64,000 nt of DNA from a virus: positions 104,261-168,260 of the IMG/VR virus record IMGVR_UViG_3300033485_000002; one strand, given 5' to 3'. Shown here piece by piece: positions 1,817 to 56,144 of the stretch. Each line of letters opens with the position of its first letter. Within the stretch, counting starts at the first letter, position 1. The position numbers and the translations under genes were made by a program. The notes beneath the pieces are model-generated. The model was not told the origin of the DNA. It did no database searches and was given only the letters and a program-made list of their open reading frames with translations.

Positions 1817-3685
1817 ATGACCGCCAGGATGGCTAAGCGTCTAACCGAAATTGCCGTAGACCGCATCACCCCGGCTATGGAGAAGACTGTCAAAATGCTT
1901 GACCGCATTATGCGGAACAAGGTCAAGAAGTATGGTGCTTCTCAGCTTGTGACAAAGAGTAAGCGGTTTGGTAAGGATGCCTTTTTCAACGAGTATAAGG
2001 GTAGGGTCATTCGTTTAGGCGGGGGCACTGGCCCGACTGTTCATGTAACTCGTCTTAGAAAGCCAGCTAAGCTGCGTAAGCATAGGGAAATCCCCGGAGG
2101 ACAGTTTGACGATTTGAACAATGCGGTAACTATCAATCCGTCAATTTTTCGGGGCAGCCCAGAGTCGTCACAAAATACTATTGCTCATGAGCTATTTCAT
2201 AGTACAGATCCTGGTGCTTTGATATCAAGAAGTTACAAATTAGGGTCAAAGGGGTACTATCAAGACCCTGCGGAAGTCTCAGCCATAGCTGCAACTGGTT
2301 CATTAAGAACTGTTCGCCATTTTCATCAAAACGATATACCTGACAAAGTTGCCAGGATGAAGATTTCCAGTCGGAACCGAGACGATTGGAGAGATCCCCA
2401 TCTGTGGATGCTAATGCAGAAGAATAGTGGAAGTTCTAAAGTAGAGAGGAAGATCCGTCAAAAGGTGGGGAAGAACCTTCATCGAGCTTATGAGCGGGTA
2501 TACCGCCCCGAGACGTATGTGCCTCGGGCGGTTAAACGGGCGAAGCTGCCCGAGGGGTTGGCTGAAGCCGTTTCCAAGTGGACTCGGCAGGGGTTGCGTC
2601 AGAAGTGGAGCATTTCTCCGACTGTTGATACCCATGTTCCTAATCCGGAATTCGATCAAGTGTTCTCCTTGTGGCAGATGCAGCACCCTCACAAGAAGGT
2701 TGTGGGGAATACTTTGAAGATGGCTAACGAACGTCGTGCGGCTGTGAGTAAACGTAAGAAACTACCGGAGGATATGAACATGCCCGAGCGTGAAGAGCTG
2801 TTAGAGCGTGCCCATGCTTTCTTGAACGAGGGACCAGGAGCCTATGTGAACTCATTGATTGGTATGGCTCCTCATCAGGAGAATCGGGGGCCAACGTATG
2901 AGAAAGCCTACAAAACGTACCAGCACCGGGCAAGAAAAGGAGCGGTGATCGGGGCTGTGACTGGTGCCGCTGCGGGGTTTGCTGGTGGGGCGCTTGCTGG
3001 TGGGATAACTGCGCCTTTTGGAGCTGTGGTTGGGGCACTCGGTGGTGGTGCTGCTGGGAGTGCAATGGGGCAATATTCTGCTTATCGGAAGATAAAAAAA
3101 GCTTCTTACCCGAAACCCGTTAAGCCCACTACCGAAGAGCTTCTCGACCGTGCCGCTGAGTTTTTGAATGAGGTTGTATCTCGGAAGACTAGAGCCGAGT
3201 TGAGTGGGCCGTGGGATGAGCCAGAGGGCAATTACTCATCTCGGGACCATTTGGCATTGTTAGCTAGTAACCCAGGGGACTGGATGGGGTCAAGGGAGCA
3301 ACAAGCGGCTCAGAACACCTTACAGATGAACAAAGAACGAATGGACGCTTATTCTGCTCAGACTGACGCTGCTATTAAGGGTGATTGGTTTAAGGAGCGT
3401 CTTTCGGGTAAAACTCGTAAAGAGATAAAGAATGCTTTTAAACGTTCGGGAGTAGCTTATCCCCATGGACGGCATCCTCGTAAAGATCGTAGAGGTGGTA
3501 GTCTTGACACGCTTATGACCCAATGGCGGAAAGAGCATCCAACGGAAGAGCTATTAACCCAAGCTCGTGCTTTCTTGGATGAAATTGTTGCCCCTCAACC
3601 ATCTCTTTCGCAAAGGGTGGAACGGGCAAAAAAGAAGGGGCCATTGGGTCAGATGTTGGACCCCTACGCCCATGTTAAGTTTTAA
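1817..3685 (+). CDS. basic modular protein, putative internal head polyprotein (HExxH module, glycine zipper, 3x EELLxxAxxFL[ND]E linkers)
   Basis: AHELFH at 2183-2200; linkers at 2792-2830, 3134-3172, 3545-3583; GAVIGAVTGAAAGFAGG zipper; K/R-rich. Confidence 0.75.
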   Translation: MTARMAKRLTEIAVDRITPAMEKTVKMLDRIMRNKVKKYGASQLVTKSKRFGKDAFFNEYKGRVIRLGGGTGPTVHVTRLRKPAKLRKHREIPGGQFDDLNNAVTINPSIFRGSPESSQNTIAHELFHSTDPGALISRSYKLGSKGYYQDPAEVSAIAATGSLRTVRHFHQNDIPDKVARMKISSRNRDDWRDPHLWMLMQKNSGSSKVERKIRQKVGKNLHRAYERVYRPETYVPRAVKRAKLPEGLAEAVSKWTRQGLRQKWSISPTVDTHVPNPEFDQVFSLWQMQHPHKKVVGNTLKMANERRAAVSKRKKLPEDMNMPEREELLERAHAFLNEGPGAYVNSLIGMAPHQENRGPTYEKAYKTYQHRARKGAVIGAVTGAAAGFAGGALAGGITAPFGAVVGALGGGAAGSAMGQYSAYRKIKKASYPKPVKPTTEELLDRAAEFLNEVVSRKTRAELSGPWDEPEGNYSSRDHLALLASNPGDWMGSREQQAAQNTLQMNKERMDAYSAQTDAAIKGDWFKERLSGKTRKEIKNAFKRSGVAYPHGRHPRKDRRGGSLDTLMTQWRKEHPTEELLTQARAFLDEIVAPQPSLSQRVERAKKKGPLGQMLDPYAHVKF

Positions 3686-3700
3686 TGAGGTAATAAGAAG

Positions 3701-4297
3701 ATGAACCCGAACATCGTTAGAGCCGCAGTGACTGCCGTGAAGTCGGGTTCGCATACGCCGAATCATGTGATTGCCCTGCGTAAGGCGCATACCTTCTTGT
3801 CGGCTAACAAGTCCCACGCTTGGAACAAAAGTCCCTCACTCCATCAGGCTTTCAACAAGGTTGGGTTAGGCATAAAGACGGAGAGTGCTATGAGCAAGGA
3901 TAAGGCATTGTTTGCCCAGGTTGTTAACCATCTGATTGAGGAAGAGGGCAAGAAGAAAGCCCGTAAGCCTTGGCCGATCCGGCCCAGTGAGTTGAGCGGG
4001 ATGATCAAAGCCAGCCGTGATAAGAAATGGGGTTATGGGCTTTCGGTGGCGGTGAACCATCCAGAGGTGGGGCAGGTGACCTTCGACAAGTTCTTCAATA
4101 AGCCGAACCAAGTGGGGCACCGGTTGGATACGCGCTCCTTCAGTGATCAGGAGCGGCTTGTGAACTTTCTCAGACGGTATGGAGTGGAGCCTACGATCAA
4201 GGGGCCATCCGCAGGTGGGGAAGCTGCTCCGGTCGGCAAGAAGACCAAGAAGACCAAGAAGCTGAAGGAAACGCTTGATGAGGACCGCGAGTTCTAA
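3701..4297 (+). CDS. basic protein, putative internal head protein
   Basis: GAGGT SD; LFAQVVNHLIEE linker; C-terminal domain paralogous to N-terminus of next gene. Confidence 0.7.
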   Translation: MNPNIVRAAVTAVKSGSHTPNHVIALRKAHTFLSANKSHAWNKSPSLHQAFNKVGLGIKTESAMSKDKALFAQVVNHLIEEEGKKKARKPWPIRPSELSGMIKASRDKKWGYGLSVAVNHPEVGQVTFDKFFNKPNQVGHRLDTRSFSDQERLVNFLRRYGVEPTIKGPSAGGEAAPVGKKTKKTKKLKETLDEDREF

Positions 4298-4299
4298 GC

Positions 4300-6978
4300 A
4301 TGGGCAAGTGGTCGCTTCTTGAGGTTCGAGGCTTCCCGAGCATCACCGGGGAGGAGCTGTTGCAGCTTGTCCAGGATGCTCGGTTCAGGGGCGGGAACAC
4401 ACTCAGCTTCAGGGTGGACATCGATGACCCGGTCAAGGGTTTGTTGTCCTTTCGGCGTTTCCTTGGTAACGGTACCAGTCGAGTCGAGATCCGATCTTTT
4501 GCTAACCGGGACAAGCTGATCGCGTTCCTCGGTGAGCATGGCGTACGTTATAACGTACGGCACCATGTACATGAGGATGTGGGCCACACCTTTACCAGAC
4601 AGGCTACTGGGATTCCTTTCTACGTTAACGGCAACTTTGAAGTTTGTATCGGAAAGCCGGGGCAGTTCCACGCCACGATGAAGGGCTATGAAGCTGATGA
4701 GCGTACCAAGGGCGTGTTCGCCCGTGGTTACTATCATTCGGCAAGGCCGATTCAGGATGTGCCATCTGCGTTGCAGTGGTGGACAGAACATCTGCATGAT
4801 GCCGCAACAATGCAGGAGTTAGAGAGAATAGCGACAGAGGCTTTTGAGAAAAAGGGATACAGGGTGGAAGAGCCTAACTGGTCCAAGTGGTTGAAGAGGC
4901 GCAAAGAGCAAGAGTTTGTGGCACTGCGCAGAGCGGGGAAGGTCATGCAGCGAGAGGGAGCTATCGAACGAGCTGTTGACCAGCTACTCCATGAACATGA
5001 AGCAAAATATACCGGTTATTCTCCATTTGGTGGGGGGATTAGATCTAAAGAAGCACAATCTCATATGAAAAGACTTGGAGGAGAACTTCGTAAGGAGAAG
5101 GGGTTATCATATCTTTTATACCCTGAGTATTACGGCCACTGTGCTCACTGTCGTCAAGATGACAGTAAAATGTGGTTAACGTCGCATAGACAGTGGAGTA
5201 AACTTCCTTTAGAACATCGAGATAAAGTGTTATGTGTGAATTGTTTTCGCAAATTAAGTAATCTAAAAGAAGTACATGATATTACCCAAAAGGTTTATAG
5301 CGAAGCGGTTGACCATTTGCTTGAGGGGGTTCAGGTGACATCAGGTCAAGCTCGACGAGTGGCTGAGCGTATCGGGGCGAATAAGGTTGACCTGGAGCAG
5401 CTCCGTCGAGGGCTTGAGGTTGAGCAGGAGCACGGGGACAAGGACAAGCAGACGGATGTGGTCCCTGGCAAAGATGCTAAAAACCTTGACACCTTCGGCA
5501 AGATCGCCTTGGCTCACCTGAAAGAGATTCCGGACTACTACACCCGGCTCGCCAAGATGGAGAAGGTAGGCAAGAAGGCGGTCAAGGAAGCGGTAGAGCA
5601 TCTGCTTCGTGAAGATTCTATAGCTGACACTCTTCAGACTATGCTTGCGAAACATCGTAGTACAAAGGTTCGGATCAAAAATCGTCCACCGGTACGAGTA
5701 GTTGTCCGTCATAAAGCAACATCTAGATCTCTTACAGGGGCTTATTATCACCCTGGGGAGCAACAGGTATACGTTGGTAAAAAGGGGAAGAAATTTTCGC
5801 CTTTTGAGCGAACAATTTTAGCGCATGAGCTGGGACATCACCGGAATTGGAGCCATGTCCCACTTTCTCCGCAGGGGAAAATGAAAATGGCATCAACTGC
5901 TCAGGCAGCGTACCAAGCTGGGGCGCTTGCAGGTACGGTAGGAGCGCTTGGTGCAAAGACTGATAAACAGGCGAAGGCAGCGGCGACTATTGGCACGGTG
6001 GCGGCATTACCTCGTTATGGGGATGAGGCGTTGGCTAATGCACGTGCGCTTGGGCGTACTGTAGCGAAACACGGAGCGCGGGGGCTTTTAGCAGGTAAAG
6101 CAGGCCCATTACGTGCTGTTGGTGTGAGTATGGCTAGTTATAGCATGTTGCCTGCTATGCCTTGGTTAGCTTATGCCCATCGTCGAGCAATTAGAAAGTC
6201 GGCAAACTATCATGCTCTTCAATCAAGAACCCGGAAACAAATTCAACATGCTGTTCAACATGGGGAGAGCACAAGGCGTTTAGCTAAAAAGTATGATGTG
6301 ACGCGGCGGTCTGTGCGGGCGATGGGCAAGAGTACTCGGACACCTAAGCCATCGTGGCATAGTCATTCTCCTTACTATGGTTATTTTCTTCAAACAGCTA
6401 AAAAGCAACGTCATGGGGTCAAGGAAGCGGTAGAGCATCTGCTTCGTGAAGGCAGGTTCGATTACAAGTCCTCGGTGGGGGTACAGAGTCAGTTTGCCCC
6501 GCAGCAGAAGATGACGTTGCAGAGAGCGGTTAACACGAATAAGTATTCGGCACCGAAGGCTTCACAGCAAGCGGTTAAGCCGCAGGTATCGAAGCAACAG
6601 GAAGTCAAAGAAGCTGCGGATCAGATGCTTGCCGAGGGGTTCTTCAAAGATATGTTGTTCTACGACCTGTCCCGACATCACCCTCGTGCCGGTAGGCGGG
6701 CTGAGCACATGCGTCCAGCGTCTTCAAAGCCTAAGCCAGCTTATGAGCCTATGGGGCGGTATAACCCGGCTACGGTGTATCCGGAAGGGCACCCGATGCA
6801 TCCAGGTACGGTGAAGGCTCCTAGCCCGATAGCAACAACGGCAAGTAGTTCAGCAAAAGCAGGTACGGCAAAGAAGCTTTTTACGCGACGGAGTGCAGCG
6901 GTTTTGGCAGTTCCGCTATTAGCTGTAGGCGGCACGAAAGCGTATGAGGCATGGGCGACTCGTCGTAAGAAAAAGTAG
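4300..6978 (+). CDS. 892-aa modular protein, putative internal head polyprotein (CxxC finger, DUF5661-like, HExxH zincin modules)
   Basis: Five linkers (ERAVDQLLHE, EAVDHLLE, 2x EAVEHLLRE, EAADQMLAE); GLEVEQEH..IALAHLKEIPDYYTRLAKME DUF5661-like motif; AHELGH 5821-5838. Confidence 0.8.
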   Translation: MGKWSLLEVRGFPSITGEELLQLVQDARFRGGNTLSFRVDIDDPVKGLLSFRRFLGNGTSRVEIRSFANRDKLIAFLGEHGVRYNVRHHVHEDVGHTFTRQATGIPFYVNGNFEVCIGKPGQFHATMKGYEADERTKGVFARGYYHSARPIQDVPSALQWWTEHLHDAATMQELERIATEAFEKKGYRVEEPNWSKWLKRRKEQEFVALRRAGKVMQREGAIERAVDQLLHEHEAKYTGYSPFGGGIRSKEAQSHMKRLGGELRKEKGLSYLLYPEYYGHCAHCRQDDSKMWLTSHRQWSKLPLEHRDKVLCVNCFRKLSNLKEVHDITQKVYSEAVDHLLEGVQVTSGQARRVAERIGANKVDLEQLRRGLEVEQEHGDKDKQTDVVPGKDAKNLDTFGKIALAHLKEIPDYYTRLAKMEKVGKKAVKEAVEHLLREDSIADTLQTMLAKHRSTKVRIKNRPPVRVVVRHKATSRSLTGAYYHPGEQQVYVGKKGKKFSPFERTILAHELGHHRNWSHVPLSPQGKMKMASTAQAAYQAGALAGTVGALGAKTDKQAKAAATIGTVAALPRYGDEALANARALGRTVAKHGARGLLAGKAGPLRAVGVSMASYSMLPAMPWLAYAHRRAIRKSANYHALQSRTRKQIQHAVQHGESTRRLAKKYDVTRRSVRAMGKSTRTPKPSWHSHSPYYGYFLQTAKKQRHGVKEAVEHLLREGRFDYKSSVGVQSQFAPQQKMTLQRAVNTNKYSAPKASQQAVKPQVSKQQEVKEAADQMLAEGFFKDMLFYDLSRHHPRAGRRAEHMRPASSKPKPAYEPMGRYNPATVYPEGHPMHPGTVKAPSPIATTASSSAKAGTAKKLFTRRSAAVLAVPLLAVGGTKAYEAWATRRKKK
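5580..5614 (+). repeat. 35-bp exact direct repeat, copy 1
   Basis: ggtcaaggaagcggtagagcatctgcttcgtgaag, identical to 6417-6451. Confidence 0.95.
6417..6451 (+). repeat. 35-bp exact direct repeat, copy 2
   Basis: Identical to 5580-5614; offset 837 bp (279 codons, in frame). Confidence 0.95.
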
Positions 6979-7035
6979 TTTATCTTGTTGGGACTAGCGA
7001 TGTAGCTTTATTCTAGGGAGTATAGGAGACTTAAA

Positions 7036-7839
7036 ATGGCTAAGCAAAAAACTGTATCCTCTAAAGAACATGCAGCGCAAAGTAGAAGGTGGTTAGCCCA
7101 AGTTGGAACAGGGGGACTTGGTGGCTATATGGGGGGGCGTGCTATTGGGTCTGCTATCCCTACTAGTAGTATGACTGCGAAAGCTGCACTTATGACTGCT
7201 GGTGGAGTTGGTGGGGCAGTTGGTGGGTATTATGCTGCCAAATCTCATTTAGGACAGGACTTAAAGCAAATGGAGCGAAGTCCTAATAAGCCAAAGGCAG
7301 CTAAAGCTTTTGCTGCTAATCATCCGGTTGCAGCGGTAATGATCCTGCCGAAGAATAAGTTTCAACAGCAAAAGTTAGCTTCTCGTGGTACTGGTGGGCA
7401 CATAGGGCATGCTCTCCTCCGAAATATGGGGGGCGGCCCAATGAATATTATCCGGTATGGGGCAAAATCCCATTACGCTAAAGCCGGATATTATCGAGAG
7501 GAAGATATGCTTAGAGATGAGCTGATTGAGCAGATTCTAGTAGCTGCTTTAGACGAAGGTAAGCTCCAGGATCTCGATCAAGCGCTTCATCGTCAGCGGA
7601 AGTTTAAGAGCAGGGGGCTTCAGAAGGCTGACAAGTTCTTACACCGCCGCCCAGCACAGGATGTTGGACGAGCTGCCCGTCGTGTGAAGCGTGTTGCTAG
7701 TGGTGCGGCGCATAAGGCTGTCCGTGGGCTGAAACGAACGGATCGTAAGCTGCACCGTTCTTATCAATTTAAGAATAAGGGATTGAAGAAGGTGGACAGG
7801 TTCCTGCATCGGAAGATTGCCGAGGCTGAACTTGCATGA
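7036..7839 (+). CDS. basic glycine-zipper protein, putative internal head protein
   Basis: AGGAG SD; GGLGGYMGG/GGVGGAVGGY zippers; ELIEQILVAALDE linker; duplicated LHRxxxFKxxGLxKxDxFLHR segment. Confidence 0.75.
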   Translation: MAKQKTVSSKEHAAQSRRWLAQVGTGGLGGYMGGRAIGSAIPTSSMTAKAALMTAGGVGGAVGGYYAAKSHLGQDLKQMERSPNKPKAAKAFAANHPVAAVMILPKNKFQQQKLASRGTGGHIGHALLRNMGGGPMNIIRYGAKSHYAKAGYYREEDMLRDELIEQILVAALDEGKLQDLDQALHRQRKFKSRGLQKADKFLHRRPAQDVGRAARRVKRVASGAAHKAVRGLKRTDRKLHRSYQFKNKGLKKVDRFLHRKIAEAELA

Positions 7840-7859
7840 GCGGTAAAGAGTAGTATATT
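7832..7859 (+). promoter_or_regulatory. possible sigma70-type promoter
   Basis: TTGCAT-N16-TATATT upstream of structured RNA and tRNA. Confidence 0.4.
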
Positions 7860-7874
7860 ACCTTTTGAAGGTAA

Positions 7875-7949
7875 GGCAGGTGGGTGTTGGCACAACTGCC
7901 ACCCCGGCCCCCCATATCACCAACACGGGGACCGGGGCCTTCTTTTTTT
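7875..7949 (+). ncRNA. candidate structured RNA (two hairpins with complementary loops, ending in U-tract)
   Basis: Stems GGCAG-GTG/CAC-CTGCC and CCCCGG-CCCC/GGGG-CCGGGG; loop GTGTTGG 7884-7890 complements CCAACAC 7920-7926. Confidence 0.45.
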
Positions 7950-8021
7950 AGGGGCATGGTGTAATCGGTAGCACGCAACACTTTGGATGTTGTGGTTGGG
8001 GTTCAAGTCCCTGTGCCCCTG
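7950..8021 (+). tRNA. tRNA-Gln(UUG)
   Basis: Acceptor AGGGGCA/TGCCCCT; D-arm GTGT/GCAC; anticodon arm CAACA-CTTTGGA-TGTTG; T-loop TTCAAGT; CCA not encoded. Confidence 0.88.
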
Positions 8022-8050
8022 TTTCGGATTTAGTGTGGGGGTCTTTTACT

Positions 8051-8254
8051 ATGGAAAGTGGCAAGATGCTTTACCTTCTTGTGCAACGCACGGAAGTTCT
8101 TCATGGGCATAATGATATCTACGCTGGTGTTTTCGAACTGCGCTCAGATGCGGAAGCGGCTATTGCCCAACAACCTATCAACTTGCGTTGGCAGTTCGTG
8201 ATCTATCCGGTCATGTTTAAGCGGCTACGTACTCCGGAGTATTCGCCTCCGTAG
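8051..8254 (+). CDS. hypothetical protein
   Basis: Small ORF with YAGVFELRSDAEAAI motif typical of small phage proteins. Confidence 0.55.
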   Translation: MESGKMLYLLVQRTEVLHGHNDIYAGVFELRSDAEAAIAQQPINLRWQFVIYPVMFKRLRTPEYSPP

Positions 8255-8274
8255 TCTTTATTGCATGGGGTGGG

Positions 8275-8469
8275 ATGACCAGTTTACTGTACCTCGGGGC
8301 GCTGTTGTTGCTGCTGCTGGTCTGTATCGCTGTCACGAATACCCGCTCCAGTGTTCGTTGCCCTGCTTGTGGGACAATGATGCGGCGGATGGCGAATGCT
8401 GGATGGGGCATGACGCTGTATATCTGTCCTATTTGCAAGAAGTACTTCTATGAAGACGAGGTTGGATAG
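8275..8469 (+). CDS. membrane-anchored zinc-ribbon protein
   Basis: N-terminal hydrophobic helix, then CPACG...CPICK. Confidence 0.6.
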   Translation: MTSLLYLGALLLLLLVCIAVTNTRSSVRCPACGTMMRRMANAGWGMTLYICPICKKYFYEDEVG

Positions 8470-8485
8470 TTGCGGTTGCACGGGC

Positions 8486-8514
8486 TTGACAAAGATGCTC
8501 ACGTCATCTACGAT
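8486..8514 (+). promoter_or_regulatory. sigma70-type promoter
   Basis: TTGACA-N17-TACGAT in an intergenic gap. Confidence 0.65.
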
Positions 8515-8603
8515 TTAGGGGTCATGGGGATGCCCGTTAACGCAGCTAAGAGACCTTGAACCGGCCCGCCGTCAGGCGGGTCTTATCATGAAAGGATGAC
8601 ATT

Positions 8604-8963
8604 ATGAATGTTTATGTGTTGTTTGCGCAACGGAAAGAACGTTTCCCTGGGCAGTACGCCCCGGAAGCCTTGGCAGTGGTGGACGAGTACGTGTTGAACG
8701 ATGACGGGGTCTCTCTCGAAGAGATTCAGAAGCGCACGCTCGAACAGGACAACCCGGATGACTTCGTGTCGGTGAAGTGGGTGATGGTGAAGCTGACGGC
8801 TACTCCCGCTGATATCCGGGAGATGTTGGTCGGCATGCCGACTATCACGGGGGATGTGCCGGTGCCCCCGGAGCACAAAGGGAACCACCCCTCCTATCAG
8901 GGGATGACCGTGACTCAGGGGCGCAAGGGCGGAAAGATCGAAGATTCCGAGATCATTGACTAG
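8604..8963 (+). CDS. hypothetical protein
   Basis: AAGGA SD; G/C-ending codon bias. Confidence 0.7.
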   Translation: MNVYVLFAQRKERFPGQYAPEALAVVDEYVLNDDGVSLEEIQKRTLEQDNPDDFVSVKWVMVKLTATPADIREMLVGMPTITGDVPVPPEHKGNHPSYQGMTVTQGRKGGKIEDSEIID

Positions 8964-8971
8964 GTATCGCT

Positions 8972-9274
8972 ATGGCACAGTATCGACGATATGGCTATGT
9001 GACGACTGTTCGGGTTGAAAGAGATGGGGAATTGGTCGAGGATGCAAACATTGCATTTGACCTCAATCCGGGCTTAGCGAACGATAAGCTTGATGCCGTC
9101 ATCAACAACCGAGTGCATGCAGATGCACACAATAAAGTACTCGAAAATAACATACTTAAGCCTAATGGCGATCTTCAAGGCCAGGAGATTCGTACCGTCT
9201 TAATTCGATGTGCGGATGGTGTGACCCTCCGGTTTTCCATCCAGAGATGGTACGTGGTTGTCGGGAGGGAGTAA
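8972..9274 (+). CDS. hypothetical protein
   Basis: Operon packing. Confidence 0.6.
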   Translation: MAQYRRYGYVTTVRVERDGELVEDANIAFDLNPGLANDKLDAVINNRVHADAHNKVLENNILKPNGDLQGQEIRTVLIRCADGVTLRFSIQRWYVVVGRE

Positions 9275-9278
9275 CACC

Positions 9279-9674
9279 ATGGGGAGCGGGTACTATGAGA
9301 GTGCTTTGCTACGCCTCCGCCGCATCGTGACGTATCTGAACGCGAGGTACAATGATGTTTTCGAGGGGCAAGACATCACGCCAACTCAATTCGAAATTCT
9401 CCTGTTCGTCGAATCCAATGCGCCATGCAGCGTGTCTGCCATAGCGGAGTTCATGCTCGTGGATAAGTCTACCTCGTCGCGAGTTCTCGGGGGCATCCAG
9501 GACAAAGGGCTGGTTCAGATAGAGCGGGATACGGTGGACCGTCGCCGGAATCGAGTGAGTCTGACCCATATGGGGCAGGATGCCGTCACGAGCTTCAAAG
9601 CTGCATGGTTCGAGGTGGAAAAGGGCGTCAAGGGCCAGTACGATAAGGCAATTGAGCATTTGGAACGTTTCTGA
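9279..9674 (+). CDS. MarR-family winged-helix transcriptional regulator
   Basis: ITPTQFEILLFV..SVSAIAEFMLVDKSTSSRVLGGIQDKGLV..DRRRNRVSLTHMG is a typical MarR pattern; GGAGG SD. Confidence 0.9.
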   Translation: MGSGYYESALLRLRRIVTYLNARYNDVFEGQDITPTQFEILLFVESNAPCSVSAIAEFMLVDKSTSSRVLGGIQDKGLVQIERDTVDRRRNRVSLTHMGQDAVTSFKAAWFEVEKGVKGQYDKAIEHLERF

Positions 9675-9690
9675 CCGATAGGAGGCTACT

Positions 9691-9915
9691 GTGTCCGTAC
9701 CGATTGATGTGGTATTCGAGAAGCAGGTGGATAATCATTGGCAACCAGTTCGGAGCGCAGAGTTACGGCCAGGGGACATAGCCAGGATGCGGATGCTCAG
9801 TGGCGAGGTTCTACGGGATGACGCAGGGCGGGAGACGTTTCAAGTAGCCGGGGTGAATGGTCGGGATCCAGATTCTAAGTCACAATTCGATGTCAGTCTC
9901 GAACCAATGGTATAG
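9691..9915 (+). CDS. hypothetical protein
   Basis: AGGAGG SD before GTG. Confidence 0.65.
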   Translation: MSVPIDVVFEKQVDNHWQPVRSAELRPGDIARMRMLSGEVLRDDAGRETFQVAGVNGRDPDSKSQFDVSLEPMV

Positions 9916-9923
9916 GGGGCACA

Positions 9924-10178
9924 ATGGTAGTTGATCCAATAGAGCGTATCCGGGAGCTGTATGGGGACGAAATAGCTGAACGGATGCAGGTGTTCGCTGA
10001 GCGTGCTGAAAAAGAGAAGGCTGTAAAAGGTGCCTCGTTCTCGATTGACCCTCGCCCCATCTTTGTAATCATGACAACAACGGCTCTTTTGTGGGGTAAA
10101 GATCCTCGGCAAATACTTACCGCTGAAGTGTACGGTAAGGTGATGGACCTCATGAATATGTTCTTCAAAGATAAGTAA
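9924..10178 (+). CDS. hypothetical protein
   Basis: Operon packing, followed by terminator. Confidence 0.6.
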   Translation: MVVDPIERIRELYGDEIAERMQVFAERAEKEKAVKGASFSIDPRPIFVIMTTTALLWGKDPRQILTAEVYGKVMDLMNMFFKDK

Positions 10179-10201
10179 CCACTCCCAAGATGGGATTTAG
10201 G

Positions 10202-10232
10202 GCCGAGTCTTTTGACTCGGCTTCTTTATTTT
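10202..10232 (+). terminator. intrinsic terminator
   Basis: GCCGAGTC-TTTT-GACTCGGC then TTCTTTATTTT. Confidence 0.75.
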
Positions 10233-10252
10233 GCGATGGGAGGCGGCTTTAG

Positions 10253-11701
10253 ATGTCTCTGACCAAAGATGAGCTGCTTGCTTATGTTAGGAATCGTCAG
10301 CGGCCAGGGCATCGAGCCGCCGTGTTGAAGAAATATCAGTCAATGGCACTTTCACCTGCGATGTTGGAACGGGGGAAGAAAGCTAAAGAAGTGGCTGATA
10401 AACTTCGTGATAACGTTTTAGTCCGTGCTGCTGTGAAGAAAACATTTGAAACTGGAGAAGAAGATATGCCCATGAATAGGCTAGATGAGCTACATTTCGA
10501 TTTAACTAAAACGCGCCAAAGAGAACGGTTAGTTCGTGGCTCAAGTGATGCTCAAGATGCCTATAAGCGGCGTTATAAGGTAGCCCGAGTCGGACAGGCT
10601 GCAACACGACTTGCTGCTCATACGGGAGTAGGATTAGCGGTTGGGGGTACTGTTGGTGGCCCAATTGGGGCAACTATTGGCGGCGGGCTTGGGTTAGCGT
10701 CGGGACTTCATTCAATTAAGTACCCGAGTATGCATCTGATGAAACTGCGGCATAAGTATGCGTTGAAGAAGGGGCTTCGGGATGTGAAAAAGAGTGAGAG
10801 GCTCCAGCGATGGGGTGAGCGTCGAATGGAAAAGTTTCGGCGGCAGGGAGAGCGGCAGCAGGCTATTCAGAATTATAAGCGAGAATTTCGTGAGGGGTTG
10901 TATGAAGCTCCGATTGTGACTGGACCTGCTGCTGCGGCAATTTCTGCTCTTGAGCGGAGTGTTGCTAAGAAAGGCGCTGCCTCGGCTGTTCAGAAAGTTG
11001 GTAGACTTGCTGCGGCTAAGAATAAGTTTTTAGCCTCGAAGTTTGGGCAGTCAAAGTACGTACAGTCGAGTCTTCCGCGTCTTAAGAAGACAGGTGAGTT
11101 TTTCGGTGATGTTCGGCATATGCCTAAAACCGCTCGGGATCTTGTGTTTGCCCCGAAAGGACCGAAGGGGTTTCGTAGTGGTCTTGCAAAGCGGTTAGGA
11201 AGACAGGCGCTGGCCGGTGAGGTGATGCTGACTGGTGGAGTTATGGCCCATCATAAGATTAAAAAGATGGCCGATCAACATTACGCTCATAAGGCGTATC
11301 AGCAGCAAGCAGAGTCTGATGAGTTGTTTAACGCAATTGTGCCAGGGTTAGATCTGCAAGAATTAGCTATGCGCCGAGACTTGATCAATGAGGCTTGGGG
11401 TGCAGCTATCGGTGGTGCTGTTAAGTCTGCTGGTAGTTGGCTTGGTAGGTCAACGGGTGTGTTTACTGGTGCTGCAAATGTTGTAAGATCAGGTGGTATT
11501 AAGGACGTTATGAGAGCACGTGGTATGGCAAAAATTAACCACCCGATAGCTGGCCGAGTAAGACAAATTGGTTTAAATAAGATGGCTCCTGGTTTGGCAC
11601 AGATTAAAGGTGGTTTGGCTCCTGCGGCTACGATAGCTGGAGCTGCGGGGGCTTATAAACTTGGTCAGCGATCTGGTCGTCGATCGCAGCAAAACTACTG
11701 A
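10253..11701 (+). CDS. basic modular glycine-zipper protein, putative internal head polyprotein
   Basis: LxE junctions RLDE, GLYE, DLQE, LINE; GVGLAVGGTVGGPIGATIGGG zipper; K/R-rich. Confidence 0.75.
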   Translation: MSLTKDELLAYVRNRQRPGHRAAVLKKYQSMALSPAMLERGKKAKEVADKLRDNVLVRAAVKKTFETGEEDMPMNRLDELHFDLTKTRQRERLVRGSSDAQDAYKRRYKVARVGQAATRLAAHTGVGLAVGGTVGGPIGATIGGGLGLASGLHSIKYPSMHLMKLRHKYALKKGLRDVKKSERLQRWGERRMEKFRRQGERQQAIQNYKREFREGLYEAPIVTGPAAAAISALERSVAKKGAASAVQKVGRLAAAKNKFLASKFGQSKYVQSSLPRLKKTGEFFGDVRHMPKTARDLVFAPKGPKGFRSGLAKRLGRQALAGEVMLTGGVMAHHKIKKMADQHYAHKAYQQQAESDELFNAIVPGLDLQELAMRRDLINEAWGAAIGGAVKSAGSWLGRSTGVFTGAANVVRSGGIKDVMRARGMAKINHPIAGRVRQIGLNKMAPGLAQIKGGLAPAATIAGAAGAYKLGQRSGRRSQQNY

Positions 11702-11730
11702 AACTAAAGAGATAAGGAGTGAGGTGAACT

Positions 11731-12141
11731 ATGACTCATGAGGAAATGCGGCAGGAACTGATCGAGGCGATTATTGACGAGGCCCTCAAGGACAAGGCCA
11801 AGGCAGCGGCTGGTTGGGTTGGCAGTAAGGCTAAGGCTGGCGCAAAGGGTGTTGGCCGTGGGGCTAAGTGGGTTAGTCGTAAGACTGGCGCAACTGCTGC
11901 CGGTAAGTGGCTTGGTAGCTCCAAGGAAGCGTGGAAGGGAGCAAAGGGCCTGCGGCGAGCGCGTAAGATGGCGAAGCTTGGTCACCCGGTAGCAGGGGAA
12001 GTCCGAGCGGCTGCGATTAAGGCGCTGCGGAAGGGTGCTCCTCCTGCGGCTGTAGCATCGATGCTTGGTGCCGGTGCTGTTGCTGGTGGGTATGCTGGTG
12101 GCAAGAGCCTGCTCCGTCGTCGGCGCGAGGGTAAGTCCTAG
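11731..12141 (+). CDS. acidic leader plus K/A/G-rich basic protein, putative internal head protein
   Basis: MTHEEMRQELIEAIIDE then cationic amphipathic body; paralogous to C-terminus of 10253 gene (RARxMAKxxHPxAG). Confidence 0.75.
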   Translation: MTHEEMRQELIEAIIDEALKDKAKAAAGWVGSKAKAGAKGVGRGAKWVSRKTGATAAGKWLGSSKEAWKGAKGLRRARKMAKLGHPVAGEVRAAAIKALRKGAPPAAVASMLGAGAVAGGYAGGKSLLRRRREGKS

Positions 12142-12145
12142 TCAC

Positions 12146-12856
12146 ATGGCTTTCTCGTCTTCCACTACCCCAGAGGCGACGTGGAAGCGCATGAAGCGTC
12201 ACATCGCCAAAAGTGCTCGTCGTCTCGGTAAACGGGGCGACGAGTACCGGCGTTATGTCTACGGCGCGTTGAGAGCCAGGGGTTGGAAGCCGAAGCGGGA
12301 ACGAGTGCATGAGAATGAGCATGCTCGGGTACGTCAAGATATTGACACCGATTATGCTCATCATGCATTGAGGGGTAGCCGGAATCGGGACTTCAAGCAC
12401 ATTGAAAATAGGCGGCGAGGTGTGGTGAAGTTCTCGGTAGCTACAGAGGGACTTTTAGCTCGGGCTGACCATTGGTTGAACGAAGTGTACGGTGTAGATA
12501 TTGTTCCTACTTTCCCTCCTGAACCATTAGCGGGGAAGCTTGCTAAAAACCTTACAAAAAAAGTGCATAAAGAGTTACAGCGTGAAGCTTTTTCTCCTAC
12601 GCGAAATGTAAAGCGAGCTTTGAGATATCGCCGTAAGGCCCTGAAAATTAGAAAAACAAATGCCCCTAGAGCAGAAACAATGTTACGTCGAGCGAACGCG
12701 GTGTTAAAAAACCGGGTGCCAACATTGGCTGTTACAGGAGCTGGTTGGGTAGCGGGGCCAGGGTTTGGCACAGGGGAAGTTATGGCCGCGAGTGCTGCAA
12801 AAGGAATGAATCGCTACACACGAATGAGACGTGCTCGTTTTATGAGACGTAAGTAG
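12146..12856 (+). CDS. basic modular protein, putative internal head protein
   Basis: ATG 12146 just after upstream stop; EGLLARADHWLNE linker 12446-12484; R-rich. Confidence 0.7.
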   Translation: MAFSSSTTPEATWKRMKRHIAKSARRLGKRGDEYRRYVYGALRARGWKPKRERVHENEHARVRQDIDTDYAHHALRGSRNRDFKHIENRRRGVVKFSVATEGLLARADHWLNEVYGVDIVPTFPPEPLAGKLAKNLTKKVHKELQREAFSPTRNVKRALRYRRKALKIRKTNAPRAETMLRRANAVLKNRVPTLAVTGAGWVAGPGFGTGEVMAASAAKGMNRYTRMRRARFMRRK

Positions 12857-12865
12857 GAGGGTATA

Positions 12866-13528
12866 ATGCCCGAGCTGAGTTTACCTGCGCCGAGTCTTGT
12901 TGTTGGGCGAGATCACTACATGAGCCGTGCGAAAGCATGGACTAGCATTCTGAGCGCTCAGTTGACGGTAACGGTTCAAGCCGCAACGCTGCGTTCCTTA
13001 CTAGAGAGCGTTACGGTTAGCCTTACCGATCAGGCGACTGGGTGCTACCCGGTTCCGAATAGCTCGGTTAAGAGCTTTTCGGGGACTATCGTTCTGCCAA
13101 AGGCGTATACTCAGATTCTTGATGATACCTCTGTGACGTTCACAGCGACAGTGGGTACAAACCCGGTATCAATCACGGATGACGGGGATGGTGCCCTTAC
13201 TGGGACGAATGTGACCGGTACGATTGACTATGCGACCGGTGCGTGGACGTTGGTGTGGTCAACTGGGGCACCGGATACTGGTTCAACCATTACGGTGGAC
13301 TACACCTACTACTATGTGTTTGGGGCAGAGGATATCCAAGGAGTTTGGTTATACCCGGCTGGTGACCTTCGAGCCACGTTTGACGGGGTGACGGCACCGA
13401 CTGCGGGCACAGGTATTGTGCTCAAGGGTGAAGAGGGGCTTTTCCTGGCGGCACAGCCCGGTCTTATCGGGCAGATGCAGCTTATCGCTGGGGGTAGTGT
13501 TCTCCTTGACGTGGAAGTGCTGATGTAA
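12866..13528 (+). CDS. virion structural protein with beta-sandwich domain
   Basis: AGGAGG SD; GTIDYATGAW..DYTY domain also present in the sheath and major capsid genes. Confidence 0.7.
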   Translation: MPELSLPAPSLVVGRDHYMSRAKAWTSILSAQLTVTVQAATLRSLLESVTVSLTDQATGCYPVPNSSVKSFSGTIVLPKAYTQILDDTSVTFTATVGTNPVSITDDGDGALTGTNVTGTIDYATGAWTLVWSTGAPDTGSTITVDYTYYYVFGAEDIQGVWLYPAGDLRATFDGVTAPTAGTGIVLKGEEGLFLAAQPGLIGQMQLIAGGSVLLDVEVLM

Positions 13529-15216: not shown

Positions 15217-15219
15217 CCC

Positions 15220-15248
15220 TTGACAAATTCAAAGTCAGTCTATATATT
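15220..15248 (+). promoter_or_regulatory. sigma70-type promoter
   Basis: TTGACA-N17-TATATT. Confidence 0.7.
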
Positions 15249-15333
15249 GTTTTTATGCGACTCGTTCTAGATGACGTGCAAGTTCACGTTACGGTCATTG
15301 ACAAAAGTACTGTTATCACGTATCCTTTCTCTG

Positions 15334-15954: not shown

Positions 15955-15972
15955 CCCAAGGAGGATGGCACT

Positions 15973-41381: not shown

Positions 41382-43154
41382 ATGGCTTCGCCGCTTGTAA
41401 ATGGTTTGATGCGTCTGACTCGGTTGGACAAGATTCTCCAGCAGGAGATGGCGGTACGCGCCCAACTTGGCGGTATCCCCACGCAGATGGCAGGGAGCGA
41501 TGATCTAGTTGGCGATTTGGCTGTTATTGAGGAAGCCCTCAGCCAGTTCAACATGATCACCCGCATGCACCGTGAACGACGGTTGCGGTACCAAGATTAT
41601 GACGCCATGGACAACTATGGTGATGTGTCGGTTGCCTTGGATATCTATGCGGAAGAAGCTACCCAAACTGATCTGATGCAAGAGACCAATCTGTGGATTA
41701 CCGGGGAACAGCGAGATGATGTCGAGGAGATGGTTCAGCGGTTGCACCTGCGGACCATGGTCCAAGGGTTTGCTCGACAGCTTGCCAAGTATGGAGATGT
41801 GTTTCAAAGCTTACGGTACAACTATGAAGGGTTGGACCGGATTCTGTATCTTCCCCCACAGTATGTCCATCGGATCGGTCCTAGCATTGACCTTGTGAAG
41901 TTCTTCAAGATTGACTCCCAGTTAGGCAAGGTTTCTCCCCGAGGGGATAACCTCCTTCTGCCGTGGGAGTGTGCTCACTTCCGCATCCTGTCTTTTGGGT
42001 TTTCGGTTCTGTATGGTCGCTCGATGTTGGAGCCTGCCCGTAAGCGGTGGCTTCATCTTAAACTGCTTGAAGATGCCGTTGCTATCTATCGTTTGAATCG
42101 GGCTGTTGAGCGGTTGATTTTCTATGTGGACGTTGGTGCGGCTTCGCCGCAGGAAGCGCTCCGCATGGTTAACCAGTACAAGCGGAAGTTCGGGAACAAG
42201 CGGTCGTACATCGATCCTTCGACGAGCACGTTCGAGCAGCAGTATGATCCGACCAACATGTTGGAGAACATCTTCTGGCCGGTGAACAGTGCTACGGAGC
42301 GTTCTCGGATCGAAAAGCTCGCTCCTCCTCCGGACCAAGGACAGCTCCAGGATCTAGCCCACTTTAACGAGAAGCTCTACGTTGCGCTCGGTATCCCGCG
42401 TGACTTTCTAACAGGGGAAACGACTGGTACCTGGAATAGCCGGGAGTCTCTGGCTCTTCAGGACATTCGGTTCTCTCGTAAGCTGCACCGGTTGCAAACG
42501 GCGTTACTAGAGGGGCTGGAGATGTTGGCCCGGTTCCACCTTGCTGTGAAGTACGGTAGTGCGGAGCAAGCTCAGGAAGCTGATTTCCAGATTCATCTTG
42601 CCGACGTATCCAAGATTGCCCGTCAGCAGTATGACCAGATTGTCCTGAACCGAGTACAGATGATGACCATGTTGAATGACATGGGCACTCAGATGAACTT
42701 CAATCGGGAAGTGTGGGTGAAGTGGATCCTGGCGAACTACTTCCCGGATCTCCCGAAGGAGATGATCGAGCAGTTGGTTGTGCCGGATGCCGCTTTGGCA
42801 CAAGCGCATCAAGAGATGGCTGATATGGCACGGCCAGTTATGGCTCCTCCGCAGGCTGCGTCAGCGAAATCTAAACCTAAACCTAAAGCGAAGACAGCCA
42901 AAAAGAAGACCCATGAGGAGATTATCGAGGGTGTAGTTGATAGGCTGCTTCAGCGAAATGTAGTTGAGGAAGATATCAATAGCATCGGGGATATCCTCGC
43001 TAATTGGCAGCCTGCGGATTTATCTATGACTTTGTTAGAGTCTGAGCGGCATCAGATCCCGGTTGAATGGCTCGAAGGTGCAGCGCAGCAATATAGTCGT
43101 TCATCTAATGCCCCCATCAAGAAGATCACAGAGACTGAACTTCTCGTGGAGTAG
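41382..43154 (+). CDS. portal protein (T4 gp20-like)
   Basis: YGRSMLEPARKRW..LKLLEDAVAIYRL.RAVERLIFYVDVG; ALDIYAEEA; DIRFSRKLHRLQ. Confidence 0.93.
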   Translation: MASPLVNGLMRLTRLDKILQQEMAVRAQLGGIPTQMAGSDDLVGDLAVIEEALSQFNMITRMHRERRLRYQDYDAMDNYGDVSVALDIYAEEATQTDLMQETNLWITGEQRDDVEEMVQRLHLRTMVQGFARQLAKYGDVFQSLRYNYEGLDRILYLPPQYVHRIGPSIDLVKFFKIDSQLGKVSPRGDNLLLPWECAHFRILSFGFSVLYGRSMLEPARKRWLHLKLLEDAVAIYRLNRAVERLIFYVDVGAASPQEALRMVNQYKRKFGNKRSYIDPSTSTFEQQYDPTNMLENIFWPVNSATERSRIEKLAPPPDQGQLQDLAHFNEKLYVALGIPRDFLTGETTGTWNSRESLALQDIRFSRKLHRLQTALLEGLEMLARFHLAVKYGSAEQAQEADFQIHLADVSKIARQQYDQIVLNRVQMMTMLNDMGTQMNFNREVWVKWILANYFPDLPKEMIEQLVVPDAALAQAHQEMADMARPVMAPPQAASAKSKPKPKAKTAKKKTHEEIIEGVVDRLLQRNVVEEDINSIGDILANWQPADLSMTLLESERHQIPVEWLEGAAQQYSRSSNAPIKKITETELLVE

Positions 43155-55768: not shown

Positions 55769-56134
55769 ATGGAACCTCGTCGTGTCACTCAGGCTAAAGT
55801 TGTTCCGGGTCAATCTGTGACTCGGTTCCATCTTGCGATGGACAACTCGATGTTGCCAGATGACACGACTGAGCTTCATGTGGCCCACCACACGTCCGGT
55901 GATCTGTCCGAACCGGCTGATTGGTACAATATTTACGAGCATCCAACTGAGTGGCAGCTCGAACTTGCTCGTATTGGCCTCAATATCGACAAAGAGGACT
56001 GGACGATTCTTGAGCATATGCTCGGGAGTTTCAAATGGGTGCTGTATAAGCATACTGCCGATCCTCATCGAGCCGAAATTCGTGTTGACGTGTCTGCCAT
56101 GAAACGTGGTGAGTGGACCACGACGTATTTCTAG
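55769..56134 (+). CDS. hypothetical protein
   Basis: Operon packing. Confidence 0.65.
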   Translation: MEPRRVTQAKVVPGQSVTRFHLAMDNSMLPDDTTELHVAHHTSGDLSEPADWYNIYEHPTEWQLELARIGLNIDKEDWTILEHMLGSFKWVLYKHTADPHRAEIRVDVSAMKRGEWTTTYF

Positions 56135-56144
56135 GAGATCGCTG

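Follow-up and report, generated by a model that had tools for sequence, protein, structure and literature searches.

We analysed a window of 64,000 nucleotides from a virus (positions 104,261 to 168,260 of record IMGVR_UViG_3300033485_000002). Seven genes at positions 1817-12856 of this window (genes A to G, Table 1) encode the most basic block of proteins of a complete 168-kb T4-like phage, whose proteome (216 ORFs) is otherwise acidic. A first-pass annotation had described several segments of these proteins as cationic glycine-zipper peptides resembling bacteriocins or pore formers. Their cationic character was borne out: every module predicted within the seven proteins carries a net charge of +2 to +38, and one copy of each sums to about +280. 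The modules are separated by short acidic helices ending in (L/I)xE, with up to five such helices per protein. The helix is internal in genes A-E and G, and forms an N-terminal leader in gene F. A matrix for this linker, which was trained on the cluster itself, detected 14 copies in the seven proteins and 2 elsewhere, against 3.3 expected from shuffled sequences. Gene F is a paralogue of the tail module of gene E (35% identity over 94 aa), and both are K/G/A-rich and of low complexity. The TTG at 12065 is probably not the start of gene G; the ATG given in Table 1, which lies 5 nt past the stop codon of gene F, is likelier. A (G)CTTTATT motif precedes genes A, D and E, as well as virion structural genes, at a distance of 13-43 nt.

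Table 1. Genes, modules and segments of the basic cluster, and head genes of the same phage (window coordinates)
Feature	Position	Strand	Description
Gene A	1817..3685	+	622 aa, pI 10.2; polyprotein with HExxH, glycine-zipper and two further modules, three EELLxxAxxFL(N/D)E linkers between them
Gene A, predicted zipper module	2831..3172	+	aa 339-452, net +6; one (L/I)xE linker bounds it on each side (2792-2830; 3134-3172)
Gene A, two-arm glycine zipper	2939..3070	+	aa 375-418; GxxxG chains of 6 and 5
Gene B	3701..4297	+	198 aa, pI 10.2; basic; one linker (HLIEEE), without zipper
Gene C	4300-6978		DUF5661 is one of its modules
Gene C, C-terminal tail module	6637..6975	+	aa 780-892, net +15
Gene C, hydrophobic tail	6892-6975		hydrophobic patch 6892-6933, then basic terminus ending RRKKK
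Gene D	7036..7839	+	267 aa, pI 10.8
Gene D, first Gly-rich segment	7105-7158		aa 24-41; holds GGYMGG
Gene D, second Gly-rich segment	7183-7239		aa 50-68
Gene D, linker	7504-7557		followed by basic repeat module of +21
Gene E	10253..11701	+	482 aa, pI 10.8
Gene E, GxxxG chain	10622-10708		aa 124-152; seven steps
Gene E, linker	11354-11392
Gene E, tail module	11393-11698
Gene E, hydrophobic tail	11609-11698		G/A patch 11609-11656
Gene F	11731..12141	+	136 aa, pI 11.1; K/G/A-rich basic body
Gene F, N-terminal leader	11731-11781		acidic, 17 aa, ends IDE
Gene F, hydrophobic tail	12034-12138		G/A patch 12034-12102 (aa 102-124), poly-R end 12103-12138
Gene G	12146..12856	+
Gene G, linker	12446-12484
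Gene G, hydrophobic tail	12716-12853		G/A patch 12716-12775, R/K-rich end 12776-12853
T4 gp20-type portal protein	41382..43154	+	Portal_T4, E=3.1e-47
Prohead protease, Peptidase_S77 (T4 gp21 type)	56106..57701	+	Pfam E=2.5e-18; presumed processing enzyme
gp23-type major capsid protein	57738..59129	+	Pfam Gp23, E=2.5e-67

Translation of the coordinates confirmed that the four glycine-rich strings picked out earlier, in genes A, D, E and F, are all present where they had been placed, as are the hydrophobic tails with poly-K/R ends of genes C, E, F and G. By the definition of Kim et al. (2005; cited in PMC10240207), a glycine zipper is a GxxxGxxxG motif within a helix compatible with a membrane. 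We compared the length of G(i, i+4) chains with shuffles of the Gly-rich segment and of the whole protein. The longest chains of the 216-ORF proteome are those of gene E (7) and gene A (6, with 5 in the second arm). Within-segment shuffles gave P=0.002 for gene E and P=0.013 for gene A, and 0/2000 whole-protein shuffles matched them. In both segments, three or more small residues, Gly included, occupy positions i, i+4 and i+8 beyond what composition would produce. The chain of 4 in gene D is marginal (P=0.13 when the segment is shuffled, 0.026 when the whole protein is), and the chains of 3 in genes F and G did not exceed the expectation from composition in these shuffles. The label of glycine zipper thus holds for genes A and E, is borderline for gene D, and gives way to Gly/Ala-rich patches in genes F and G.

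The gene A zipper comprises 44 residues without charge, 15 of them Gly, with a turn at GGITAP, and ranks as the strongest zipper of the proteome when judged by hydrophobicity (KD19 1.64). Five of the eight strongest uncharged G/A-rich stretches (≥17 aa) of the proteome lie in the cluster, which holds 5% of the residues, and two of the remaining three sit in the putative tape measure protein. The density of such stretches in proteins of pI ≥10 is 4.8 times that in the rest (P=0.0009). These are features read directly from the translations. Searches of 5.8 billion clusters, 1.84 billion representatives and GenBank phages brought up no homologous protein for gene A, E or F through which the conservation of individual zippers could be traced; likewise, genes A, C and E had no tblastn match among 50,697 phage records.

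Profile searches matched the gene A module to several glycine-zipper families, below the gathering threshold of each: PF13441 YMGG (17.1 bits against 28.9), PF05433 2TM (16.5 against 24.2), PF13488 Omp (13.4 against 25) and PF13436 OmpA (6.9 against 27). The NCBIfam model YiaD_Gzip gave 28.3 bits with a cutoff of 175. Composition alone may explain these matches. The modules of genes D, E, F and G matched none of the Pfam glycine-zipper membrane families. Among PHROGs, the gene A zipper matched tail-lysin families and tape-measure families, the latter with phrog_167 at E=2.4e-5, although the tape-measure PHROG matches also count as sub-threshold. The phrog_167 alignment runs from the zipper onwards (aa 375-542) against profile positions 679-807 of 1555. 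We considered whether gene A could itself be the tape measure, for which a long helical protein encoded between the tail tube/chaperone genes and the baseplate genes would be expected, and rejected this: the match covers a short internal part of the profile, and the candidate tape measure is another gene, of 954 aa, at genome positions 4077-6941 next to the sheath gene. The zipper of this candidate and that of gene A gave no significant alignment (E=0.6).

The suggested kinship with bacteriocins did not survive these searches. Class IIb bacteriocins are cationic and carry GxxxG-type small-residue motifs in membrane-active helices. The cluster proteins share both traits with them and with Gly-rich microcins, and there is one weak NCBIfam match, to TIGR03949. 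However, with E=0.056 and 13.2 bits this match falls short of the 21.5 bits that the family requires, Pfam searches up to E=10 brought up no bacteriocin family, and inspection of the cluster translations by eye revealed no double-glycine leader. We also rejected the model of a short bacteriocin precursor of about 50-100 aa with a double-glycine or Sec leader: the segments lie in proteins of 136-892 aa, encoded within the structural region of a lytic-type phage. The term peptide is doubtful too, since the predicted zipper-bearing products, parts of phage polyproteins, would be 102-380 aa and not 30-60 aa, or 3-10 times longer than bacteriocins and microcins. It is therefore highly improbable that we are dealing with relatives of bacteriocins or microcins, antibacterial peptides exported or set free to kill competing cells.

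We then considered the cluster against the head machinery of the phage. The prohead protease, whose family is directly established, has an acidic, LxE-rich C-terminal extension of roughly 360 aa, and the N-terminal propeptide region of the capsid protein has LxE sites at aa 23, 39 and 50. A relative, G002, with a capsid protein 81% identical, has at least six small basic genes, each beginning MTREE(L/I/V)xEAI(V/I)xE or MKRELLDRVYAFLNE. In G002, small basic genes that stand apart from each other carry the linker helix of the cluster as their N-terminal leader, and this equivalence is shown directly. The start of the gene C tail module is homologous to G002 76880-76930, and the N-terminal domain of gene G to a leader-bearing G002 gene of 67 aa. 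Hydrophobic patches rich in G/A and flanked by K/R turn up again in basic proteins with a leader or linker, both in G001, G002 and G003 and in the Logan protein P0003; their position is the same in orthologues of just 29% identity. The DUF5661 domain of gene C is also found within a portal-MuF fusion protein (P0004).

This arrangement recalls the internal head proteins of T4. The T4 proteins IPI, IPII, IPIII and Alt carry a capsid-targeting tag (CTS), and the internal proteins have N-terminal propeptides of 10-19 aa with processing determinants at positions 8 and 10 (PMC9026906). Like the cluster, they pair a gp21/S77-family protease with small, very basic proteins and hypervariable cargo behind a conserved tag (PMC3012670, PMC9026906), and, like gene F and the small G002 genes, they have a short acidic or hydrophobic N-terminal leader ending I/L-x-E. 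The layout of the G002 genes is that of the T4 internal proteins, and their leader helix matches the T4 CTS (PMC9026906). Unlike the T4 proteins, the cluster reuses the tag internally, giving polyproteins, and its predicted cargo includes glycine-zipper and G/A-rich hydrophobic segments and HExxH modules. There is no sequence homology between the two sets, and no PHROG or Pfam internal-protein family matched any of the seven proteins. A second parallel comes from the giant phages phiKZ, 201phi2-1 and SPN3US, in which a short motif marks cleavage behind Glu in many head-internal proteins; some of these have several sites, and paralogous families occur (PMC5694885). Unlike the cluster, these phages use an S80 protease and an S/A/G-x-E motif, and the parts of that source drawn on here do not mention glycine-zipper cargo or linker-joined polyproteins.

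From these parallels, the cluster proteins are probably packaged cargo. The alternative is that they act at the membrane of the infected cell, in superinfection exclusion, lysis timing or membrane remodelling, and that the acidic helices are interaction or regulatory motifs and not capsid-targeting or protease sites. The cluster does lie 30-45 kb away from the head genes, and the linker motif is absent from the other head proteins of the phage. Superinfection-exclusion proteins of phages, such as P22 SieA, are membrane proteins. However, the cluster proteins have no signal peptides and no strongly hydrophobic helices; the KD19 of their segments is 1.0-1.64, whereas the true membrane proteins encoded by the same genome reach 2-3. 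Basic residues flank every segment on both sides. In addition, the MTREE...IxE leader on several unrelated small G002 genes mirrors the T4 CTS, the phage encodes an S77 protease, DUF5661 occurs in a portal-MuF fusion, and the upstream motif is common to the cluster and the structural genes. We consider a role outside the virion quite unlikely.

Packaged proteins of this composition could act mainly as DNA-condensing polycations, the K/R/G/A-rich products neutralising and organising capsid DNA as is thought for T4 internal proteins, with the Gly/Ala stretches serving as flexible spacers or, through their small residues, as helix-helix self-association contacts within an inner protein mass, and having no membrane role. 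The T4 internal proteins are basic and touch the phosphates of the DNA, and a head holds about 300 copies of each (PMC3012670; PMC9026906). The module charges and the low-complexity, K/G/A-rich sequence of gene F and the gene E tail fit such a function, as does the lack of periodicity in the weaker patches. In AlphaFold2 models, moreover, the gene E zipper is a low-confidence coil between confident helices. Charge neutralisation, however, needs neither 6-7 consecutive GxxxG steps nor an uncharged stretch of 44 residues inside a polycation. It does not account for the resemblance of the gene A segment to membrane glycine-zipper (sub-threshold) and tape-measure profiles, or for K/R-flanked hydrophobic patches that are positionally kept in such divergent orthologues. 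We regard pure condensation as less likely, though a serious rival; were it right, the cluster would encode unusual polycations of modest interest.

The compatibility of the segments with a membrane was assessed by hydrophobicity and predicted insertion energy. All simplified Hessa sums are positive (+3 to +9). The gene A zipper matches the zipper of the phage's own putative tape measure in hydrophobicity (KD19 1.64 against 1.58), and both have a Hessa sum of +3.0. AlphaFold2 predicted a helix-turn-helix hairpin plus the linker helix for the gene A module at low confidence (pLDDT 59.5), and such a hairpin for this module only. The single C-terminal patches of 13-16 residues have basic residues on either side and fit a peripheral anchor better than a pore helix.

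The earlier proposal that released cargo could form a DNA-entry conduit or act on the membrane gained precedents from outside the cluster. P22 gp7 has at its C-terminal end a Gly-rich two-helix hairpin of 45 aa with 13 Gly, a maximum KD19 of 1.31 and a Hessa sum of +5.75. In situ cryo-EM shows this hairpin within the pore by which the DNA channel passes the outer membrane (bioRxiv 10.64898/2026.09.03.749273). The hairpin predicted for gene A would have the same design, and the weak hydrophobicity of gp7 is similar to that of the cluster segments. According to its annotation, gp7 (PF25688) is packaged in the capsid and ejected, and loses an N-terminal leader, each of which has a proposed counterpart in the cluster. 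Against PF25688, the gene E zipper gave E=0.34 and 11.1 bits with a cutoff of 28, over the Gly-rich end only, and the gene A zipper gave no match; by sequence, the cluster proteins are analogues of gp7 and not members of its family. They also differ from it in that gp7 is near neutral (+2) and not polycationic, is a single conserved gene and not a variable family, has its leader cut by a host protease, and serves a short-tailed phage that must build an entire trans-envelope channel. Glycine zippers have further been tied to membrane permeation in tape measure proteins and in the T6SS effector Tde1, which depends on its zipper to permeabilise membranes and to move into the target cell (PMC10240207). 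These too are delivered proteins with repeated GxxxG in a weakly hydrophobic stretch, delivered through the tail lumen or on the T6SS spike as opposed to the proposed delivery from the head. In full-text literature searches, glycine zippers were not mentioned for head-internal proteins or for ejection proteins.

Taken together, the idea of membrane-active, bacteriocin-like peptides is retained in part: the kinship and the size are lost, the gene E zipper is modelled as coil, and membrane activity stays plausible. Our preferred reading, which we hold tentatively, is that the segments are parts of fast-evolving, very basic internal head proteins of T4 type that would be packaged, released by the protease and act on the membrane after ejection. 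If packaging is granted, the balance tips slightly towards a membrane role for at least the gene A and gene E zippers. As the sequence shows, the genes encode polyproteins or precursors that carry a leader. The acidic amphipathic helix ending (L/I)xE would direct them to the prohead core, in the manner of the T4 CTS, and the gp21-type protease would cleave after Glu to give cationic products of 100-380 aa inside the capsid, whose K/R-rich parts may rest on the packaged DNA. At infection the products would exit with the DNA. By analogy with gp7, tape measures and Tde1, their weakly hydrophobic zipper helices, soluble enough for packaging, could then insert into the cytoplasmic membrane of the host or attach to it, the predicted two-helix hairpin of gene A being the clearest case. 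There they may help build or extend a passage for DNA and co-ejected enzymes, or tether these at the membrane. The short, basic-flanked single patches would more likely be anchors for peripheral membrane binding or self-association.

Several observations count against a membrane role. A contractile tail already takes care of crossing the outer membrane, and the putative tape measure of the phage bears a zipper too; the need for a second conduit is not obvious. With so many modules and such rapid turnover, an accessory or generic function fits better than that of an indispensable channel. The insertion energies are positive, periodicity exceeds composition in two segments only, and AlphaFold2 leaves the gene E zipper disordered and gives the gene A hairpin at low confidence.

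In a stronger version, which we think unlikely, the zipper modules would be self-inserting translocation devices, carried in the capsid, that open the cytoplasmic membrane for DNA and for the HExxH and DUF5661 modules. Embedding in a polyprotein beside an acidic leader helix would keep the zippers harmless in the producing cell, and the prohead protease would arm them solely within the closed capsid. Such devices would be a head-borne counterpart of the gp7 pore and of zipper-driven translocation by Tde1.

The way in which contractile-tailed phages bring DNA and proteins through the cytoplasmic membrane is unsettled, as is the role that most internal proteins play in large phages. If they exist, cationic glycine-zipper proteins that are loaded into the capsid and armed by the protease would be a testable candidate for this crossing. 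The principle that has just been visualised for P22 gp7 would then reach T4-type phages as well. A tag that is conserved while its cargo varies also points to a natural toolkit by which capsids could be filled with membrane-active or enzymatic cargo.

The glycine-rich strings reported in the first-pass annotation were all present, and translation confirmed their coordinates and located them in seven adjacent genes, A to G, whose products are very basic (pI 10.1-11.6) in an otherwise acidic proteome. Gene G most likely starts at an ATG and not at the TTG listed for it. The hydrophobic tails followed by poly-K/R are also real. Genes C, E, F and G each end in a module with a C-terminal hydrophobic patch and then poly-K/R, and these end modules align with one another. 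The tail of gene E is clearly paralogous to gene F, with 35% identity across 94 aa. The +21 module of gene D (aa 175-267; 7558-7836) carries the repeat FK(S/N)(R/K)GL(Q/K)K(A/V)DKFLHR(R/K) twice, and these repeats are predicted amphipathic basic helices.

The window forms the final 64 kb of a 168,260-bp phage contig, with nearly all genes on the + strand. The contig ends (genome 1-645 and 167616-168260) repeat each other over about 645 bp, indicating a circular or terminally redundant complete assembly, and the phage genome is therefore probably complete. The head genes are of the T4 type. The closest capsid proteins in GenBank, from Listeria phage LIS04 and Bacillus phage SP-15, are merely 37% identical, and those of IMG/VR relatives are 77-88% identical. 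The S77 protease has a C-terminal extension of ~360 aa that is very acidic and helical-looking, with many LxE sites and a K-rich patch at its end; the extension resembles a scaffold or core protein fused to the enzyme. A 124-aa protein of pI 11.6 (44478-44852), encoded between the portal and the protease, combines an acidic N-terminal helix (ILDEFIE) with an extremely R/K-rich body behind it, and its gene is a further internal-protein-like one within the head block. Pfam did not bear out a first impression of the gene at 43556-44443 as MuF-like, and this reading was dropped.

Table. Positions of the basic gene cluster, head genes and upstream motif (window coordinates unless marked).
Feature	Position	Strand	Remark
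Gene A	1817-3685	+	
Gene B	3701-4297	+	
Gene C	4300-6978	+	
DUF5661 module of gene C	5326-5613	+	aa 343-438; E=9e-15
Gene D	7036-7839	+	
Gene E	10253-11701	+	
Gene F	11731-12141	+	
Gene G	12146-12856	+	probable ATG start; listed start TTG 12065
Portal	41382-43154	+	T4 gp20-type head gene
Prohead protease	56106-57701	+	Peptidase_S77 (gp21-type); T4-type head gene
Major capsid protein	57738-59129	+	gp23-type; T4-type head gene
(G)CTTTATT sites, window	1801, 7006, 10224, 32159, 33025, 39883		
(G)CTTTATT sites, genome	2301, 28754		

We analysed the glycine-rich segments, several of which had been described as glycine zippers, by a proteome-wide scan for uncharged stretches of at least 17 residues, with strict i, i+4 glycine chains counted separately. 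Gly/Ala-rich stretches of this kind clustered in genes A-G, and comparable ones were seen only in a 954-aa protein adjoining the tail sheath gene and in a 1720-aa tail protein. The longest glycine chain, of 7 steps, was found in gene E (P=0.002 against shuffles of its own segment). Gene A has a chain of 6 steps followed by one of 5 in a second arm beyond a GGITAP turn (P=0.013, own-segment shuffles), the 4-step chain of gene D was marginal against shuffles, and the 3-step chains of genes F and G were no longer than composition yields. This gradation indicates that genes A and E carry true zippers and that gene D is borderline, while the remaining segments are Gly/Ala-rich hydrophobic patches.

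The hydrophobicity of the zipper segments is marginal. The best 19-residue Kyte-Doolittle mean (KD19) was 1.64 for gene A, 1.20 for E, 1.17 for F and 1.01 for D, compared with 2-3 for ordinary membrane proteins of the same genome; insertion energy was estimated as a simplified, position-independent sum. The gene A figure equals the one for the putative tape-measure zipper of this phage (1.58). AlphaFold2 run without an alignment modelled the gene A module (mean pLDDT 59.5) as two helices joined by a turn, with the linker helix behind them, and the gene E zipper as a low-confidence coil flanked by two confident helices; within the zipper regions both models are too uncertain for a fold search.

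Kinship with bacteriocins, which the first-pass annotation had said the peptides resemble, was rejected since family searches gave no significant match, the only bacteriocin family match being a non-significant one to TIGR03949 in NCBIfam (E=0.056). Sub-threshold matches, which for low-complexity zippers may be compositional, were all to glycine-zipper membrane segments, and included tape-measure and tail-lysin PHROGs, the YMGG, 2TM and Omp zippers, Romo1 and C19orf12 in Pfam, and YiaD, TagQ and PspM in NCBIfam. Membership of the Pfam Gly-zipper lipoprotein families was rejected, with all matches below threshold. A PDB sequence search with the zipper-bearing module of gene A gave nothing below E=0.33 (top match, the flavivirus E stem region), and ESM Atlas scores of only 0.82-0.83 are at the level of leads. 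Identification of the cluster proteins as the tape measure protein was also rejected. The likely tape measure is the 954-aa protein (genome 4077-6941), 2.4 kb downstream of the tail sheath gene, which weakly matches a tape-measure family (phrog_1068, E=0.005) and itself contains a G/A-rich hydrophobic segment (aa 571-626); BLASTP of the gene A zipper against this segment was not significant.

Most modules had no detectable relative in any of our searches. Back-translated patterns of genes A and E found no relatives in IMG/VR, tblastn of genes A, C and E gave no match in GenBank phages, and an HMMER profile of genes E and F found the two query proteins alone among 1.84 billion representatives. 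In a word-indexed search of 5.8 billion proteins, gene A matched itself alone and gene C had one real relative, the Logan protein P0003, which as a query also matched itself alone. The remaining gene C matches, a portal-MuF fusion protein and APA-family antiporters, arose through the DUF5661 domain only. In the relatives G002 and G003 this domain lies close to the capsid gene, and in bacteria it is fused to the APA-family amino-acid/polyamine antiporters.

Interspersed in the proteins of genes A-G are 14 acidic amphipathic helices that end in (L/I)xE, for example EELLERAHAFLNE, KEAVEHLLRE and ELIEAIIDE. A position matrix of the helix found just 2 further sites in the remaining proteome, fewer than in shuffles, a comparison that is partly circular as the matrix was trained on the cluster. 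Independent evidence comes from the relative G002 (capsid protein 81% identical), where small basic genes, each separate and starting with the helix, occupy the syntenic region and its neighbourhood (MTREELTEAIVE, MTREELIEAIVE, MTREEIIEAII, MTRDKIIEDIVE, MTREEVIEAIVYE, MNREELIELLVEE and MKRELLDRVYAFLNE). The same layout is known from T4 internal proteins, in which an N-terminal capsid targeting sequence (CTS) of 10-19 residues targets the protein to the prohead core and is cut off by gp21, with positions 8 and 10 (I-x-E) determining processing (PMC9026906; PMC3012670). Unlike the N-terminal T4 CTS, the helix of this phage is found both N-terminally (gene F) and internally, so that cutting would release modules of 17-380 aa, all predicted to be cationic except the 17-aa leader peptide of gene F. 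The tag-and-cut logic is already known from the T4 CTS system. The searchable literature describes neither the making of polyproteins by repeated internal use of a CTS-like element, nor T4-type heads with glycine-zipper cargo, nor the recurrence of such cargo across a clade.

The cargo is hypervariable. Orthologues in the relatives G001 and G002 share 29% identity, as against ~80% between the capsid protein of either relative and that of the studied phage. The start codons of genes A, D and E and of several virion structural genes have a (G)CTTTATT motif 13-43 nt upstream. It has 15 copies on the + strand versus 4 on the - strand, and it is strongly enriched in intergenic DNA, where 9 of the 15 lie in ~5% of the genome. 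The motif is a candidate promoter element of the phage, and its sharing between cluster and structural genes may point to a common late regulation. No T4 late promoter TATAAATA was present in the window, and scans for sigma-70 promoters and terminators gave sites no commoner than in shuffles. Directly before the motif and gene E there is a strong terminator-like hairpin (10200-10223), whose 10-bp stem contains 6 GC pairs and is followed by a T run. Genes E, F and G may therefore share a transcription unit of their own with the tail-fibre-like genes downstream. The hypervariability, the modules without relatives, DUF5661 in a portal-MuF fusion and the shared motif fit head cargo without proving that the proteins are packaged.

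Three relatives were examined, and in each of them K/R-flanked G/A-rich hydrophobic segments recur in basic proteins that bear the leader or linker, in many cases immediately after a linker. Their density in proteins of pI at least 10 was 2-13 times that of other proteins, and two hydrophobic patches were in register between 29%-identical orthologues. P0003 (1295 aa) combines DUF5661, the same linkers and HExxH/SprT-like modules with a K/R-flanked G/A-rich helix right behind a linker. Recurrence, enrichment and kept register indicate that the feature is selected for, though individual sequences turn over.

We favour the reading that the cluster proteins are internal proteins that are packaged and released by the protease. 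Of their segments, the hairpin of gene A at a minimum, and possibly also the zippers of genes E and D, would during entry act on the cytoplasmic membrane of the host, while the polybasic flanks would bind DNA inside the capsid and anionic lipid afterwards. Pure DNA condensation, which the first-pass annotation had offered as an alternative, is credible for the K/G/A-rich modules but accounts poorly for long uncharged periodic zippers. The best precedent found for membrane action at entry is P22 gp7, annotated as a capsid-packaged ejection protein with its leader removed, whose last 45 residues are a Gly-rich pair of helices. According to a 2026 in situ cryo-EM preprint, the two arms form a V-shaped hairpin embedded in the membrane, and 24 gp7 helices together with 12 gp20 helices build the DNA-channel pore (bioRxiv 10.64898/2026.09.03.749273). 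The gp7 hairpin (KD19 1.31, GxxxG chain of 3) is no more hydrophobic or periodic than the cluster segments. Insertion into a membrane after ejection is therefore compatible with marginal hydrophobicity, which the proteins may even require to remain soluble in the course of assembly. A membrane role in the infected cell, outside the virion, is possible, yet agrees less well with how the leader is designed, which family the protease belongs to and how weakly hydrophobic the segments are. Membrane action of glycine zippers is also indicated by tape measure proteins and by the T6SS effector Tde1, in which permeabilisation of the membrane and entry depend on the zipper (PMC10240207). The short single patches, 13-16 residues long and flanked on both sides by basic residues, resemble pore helices less than they do peripheral anchors or self-association motifs.

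HExxH motifs were seen in two polyprotein modules, HELFH in gene A (2183-2200; aa 123-128) and HELGH in gene C (5821-5838; aa 508-513), and these modules are possible metallopeptidase cargo. P0003 likewise has two HExxH motifs, one of them inside a SprT-like Pfam match (26.7 bits, cutoff 25.6). In G002 (locus L018, G002:64000-83999, at about 9000-17500), 27 tRNA genes and a tmRNA gene are interleaved with small leader-bearing basic genes; the window has a single tRNA (Gln, 7949-8022), at the matching place.
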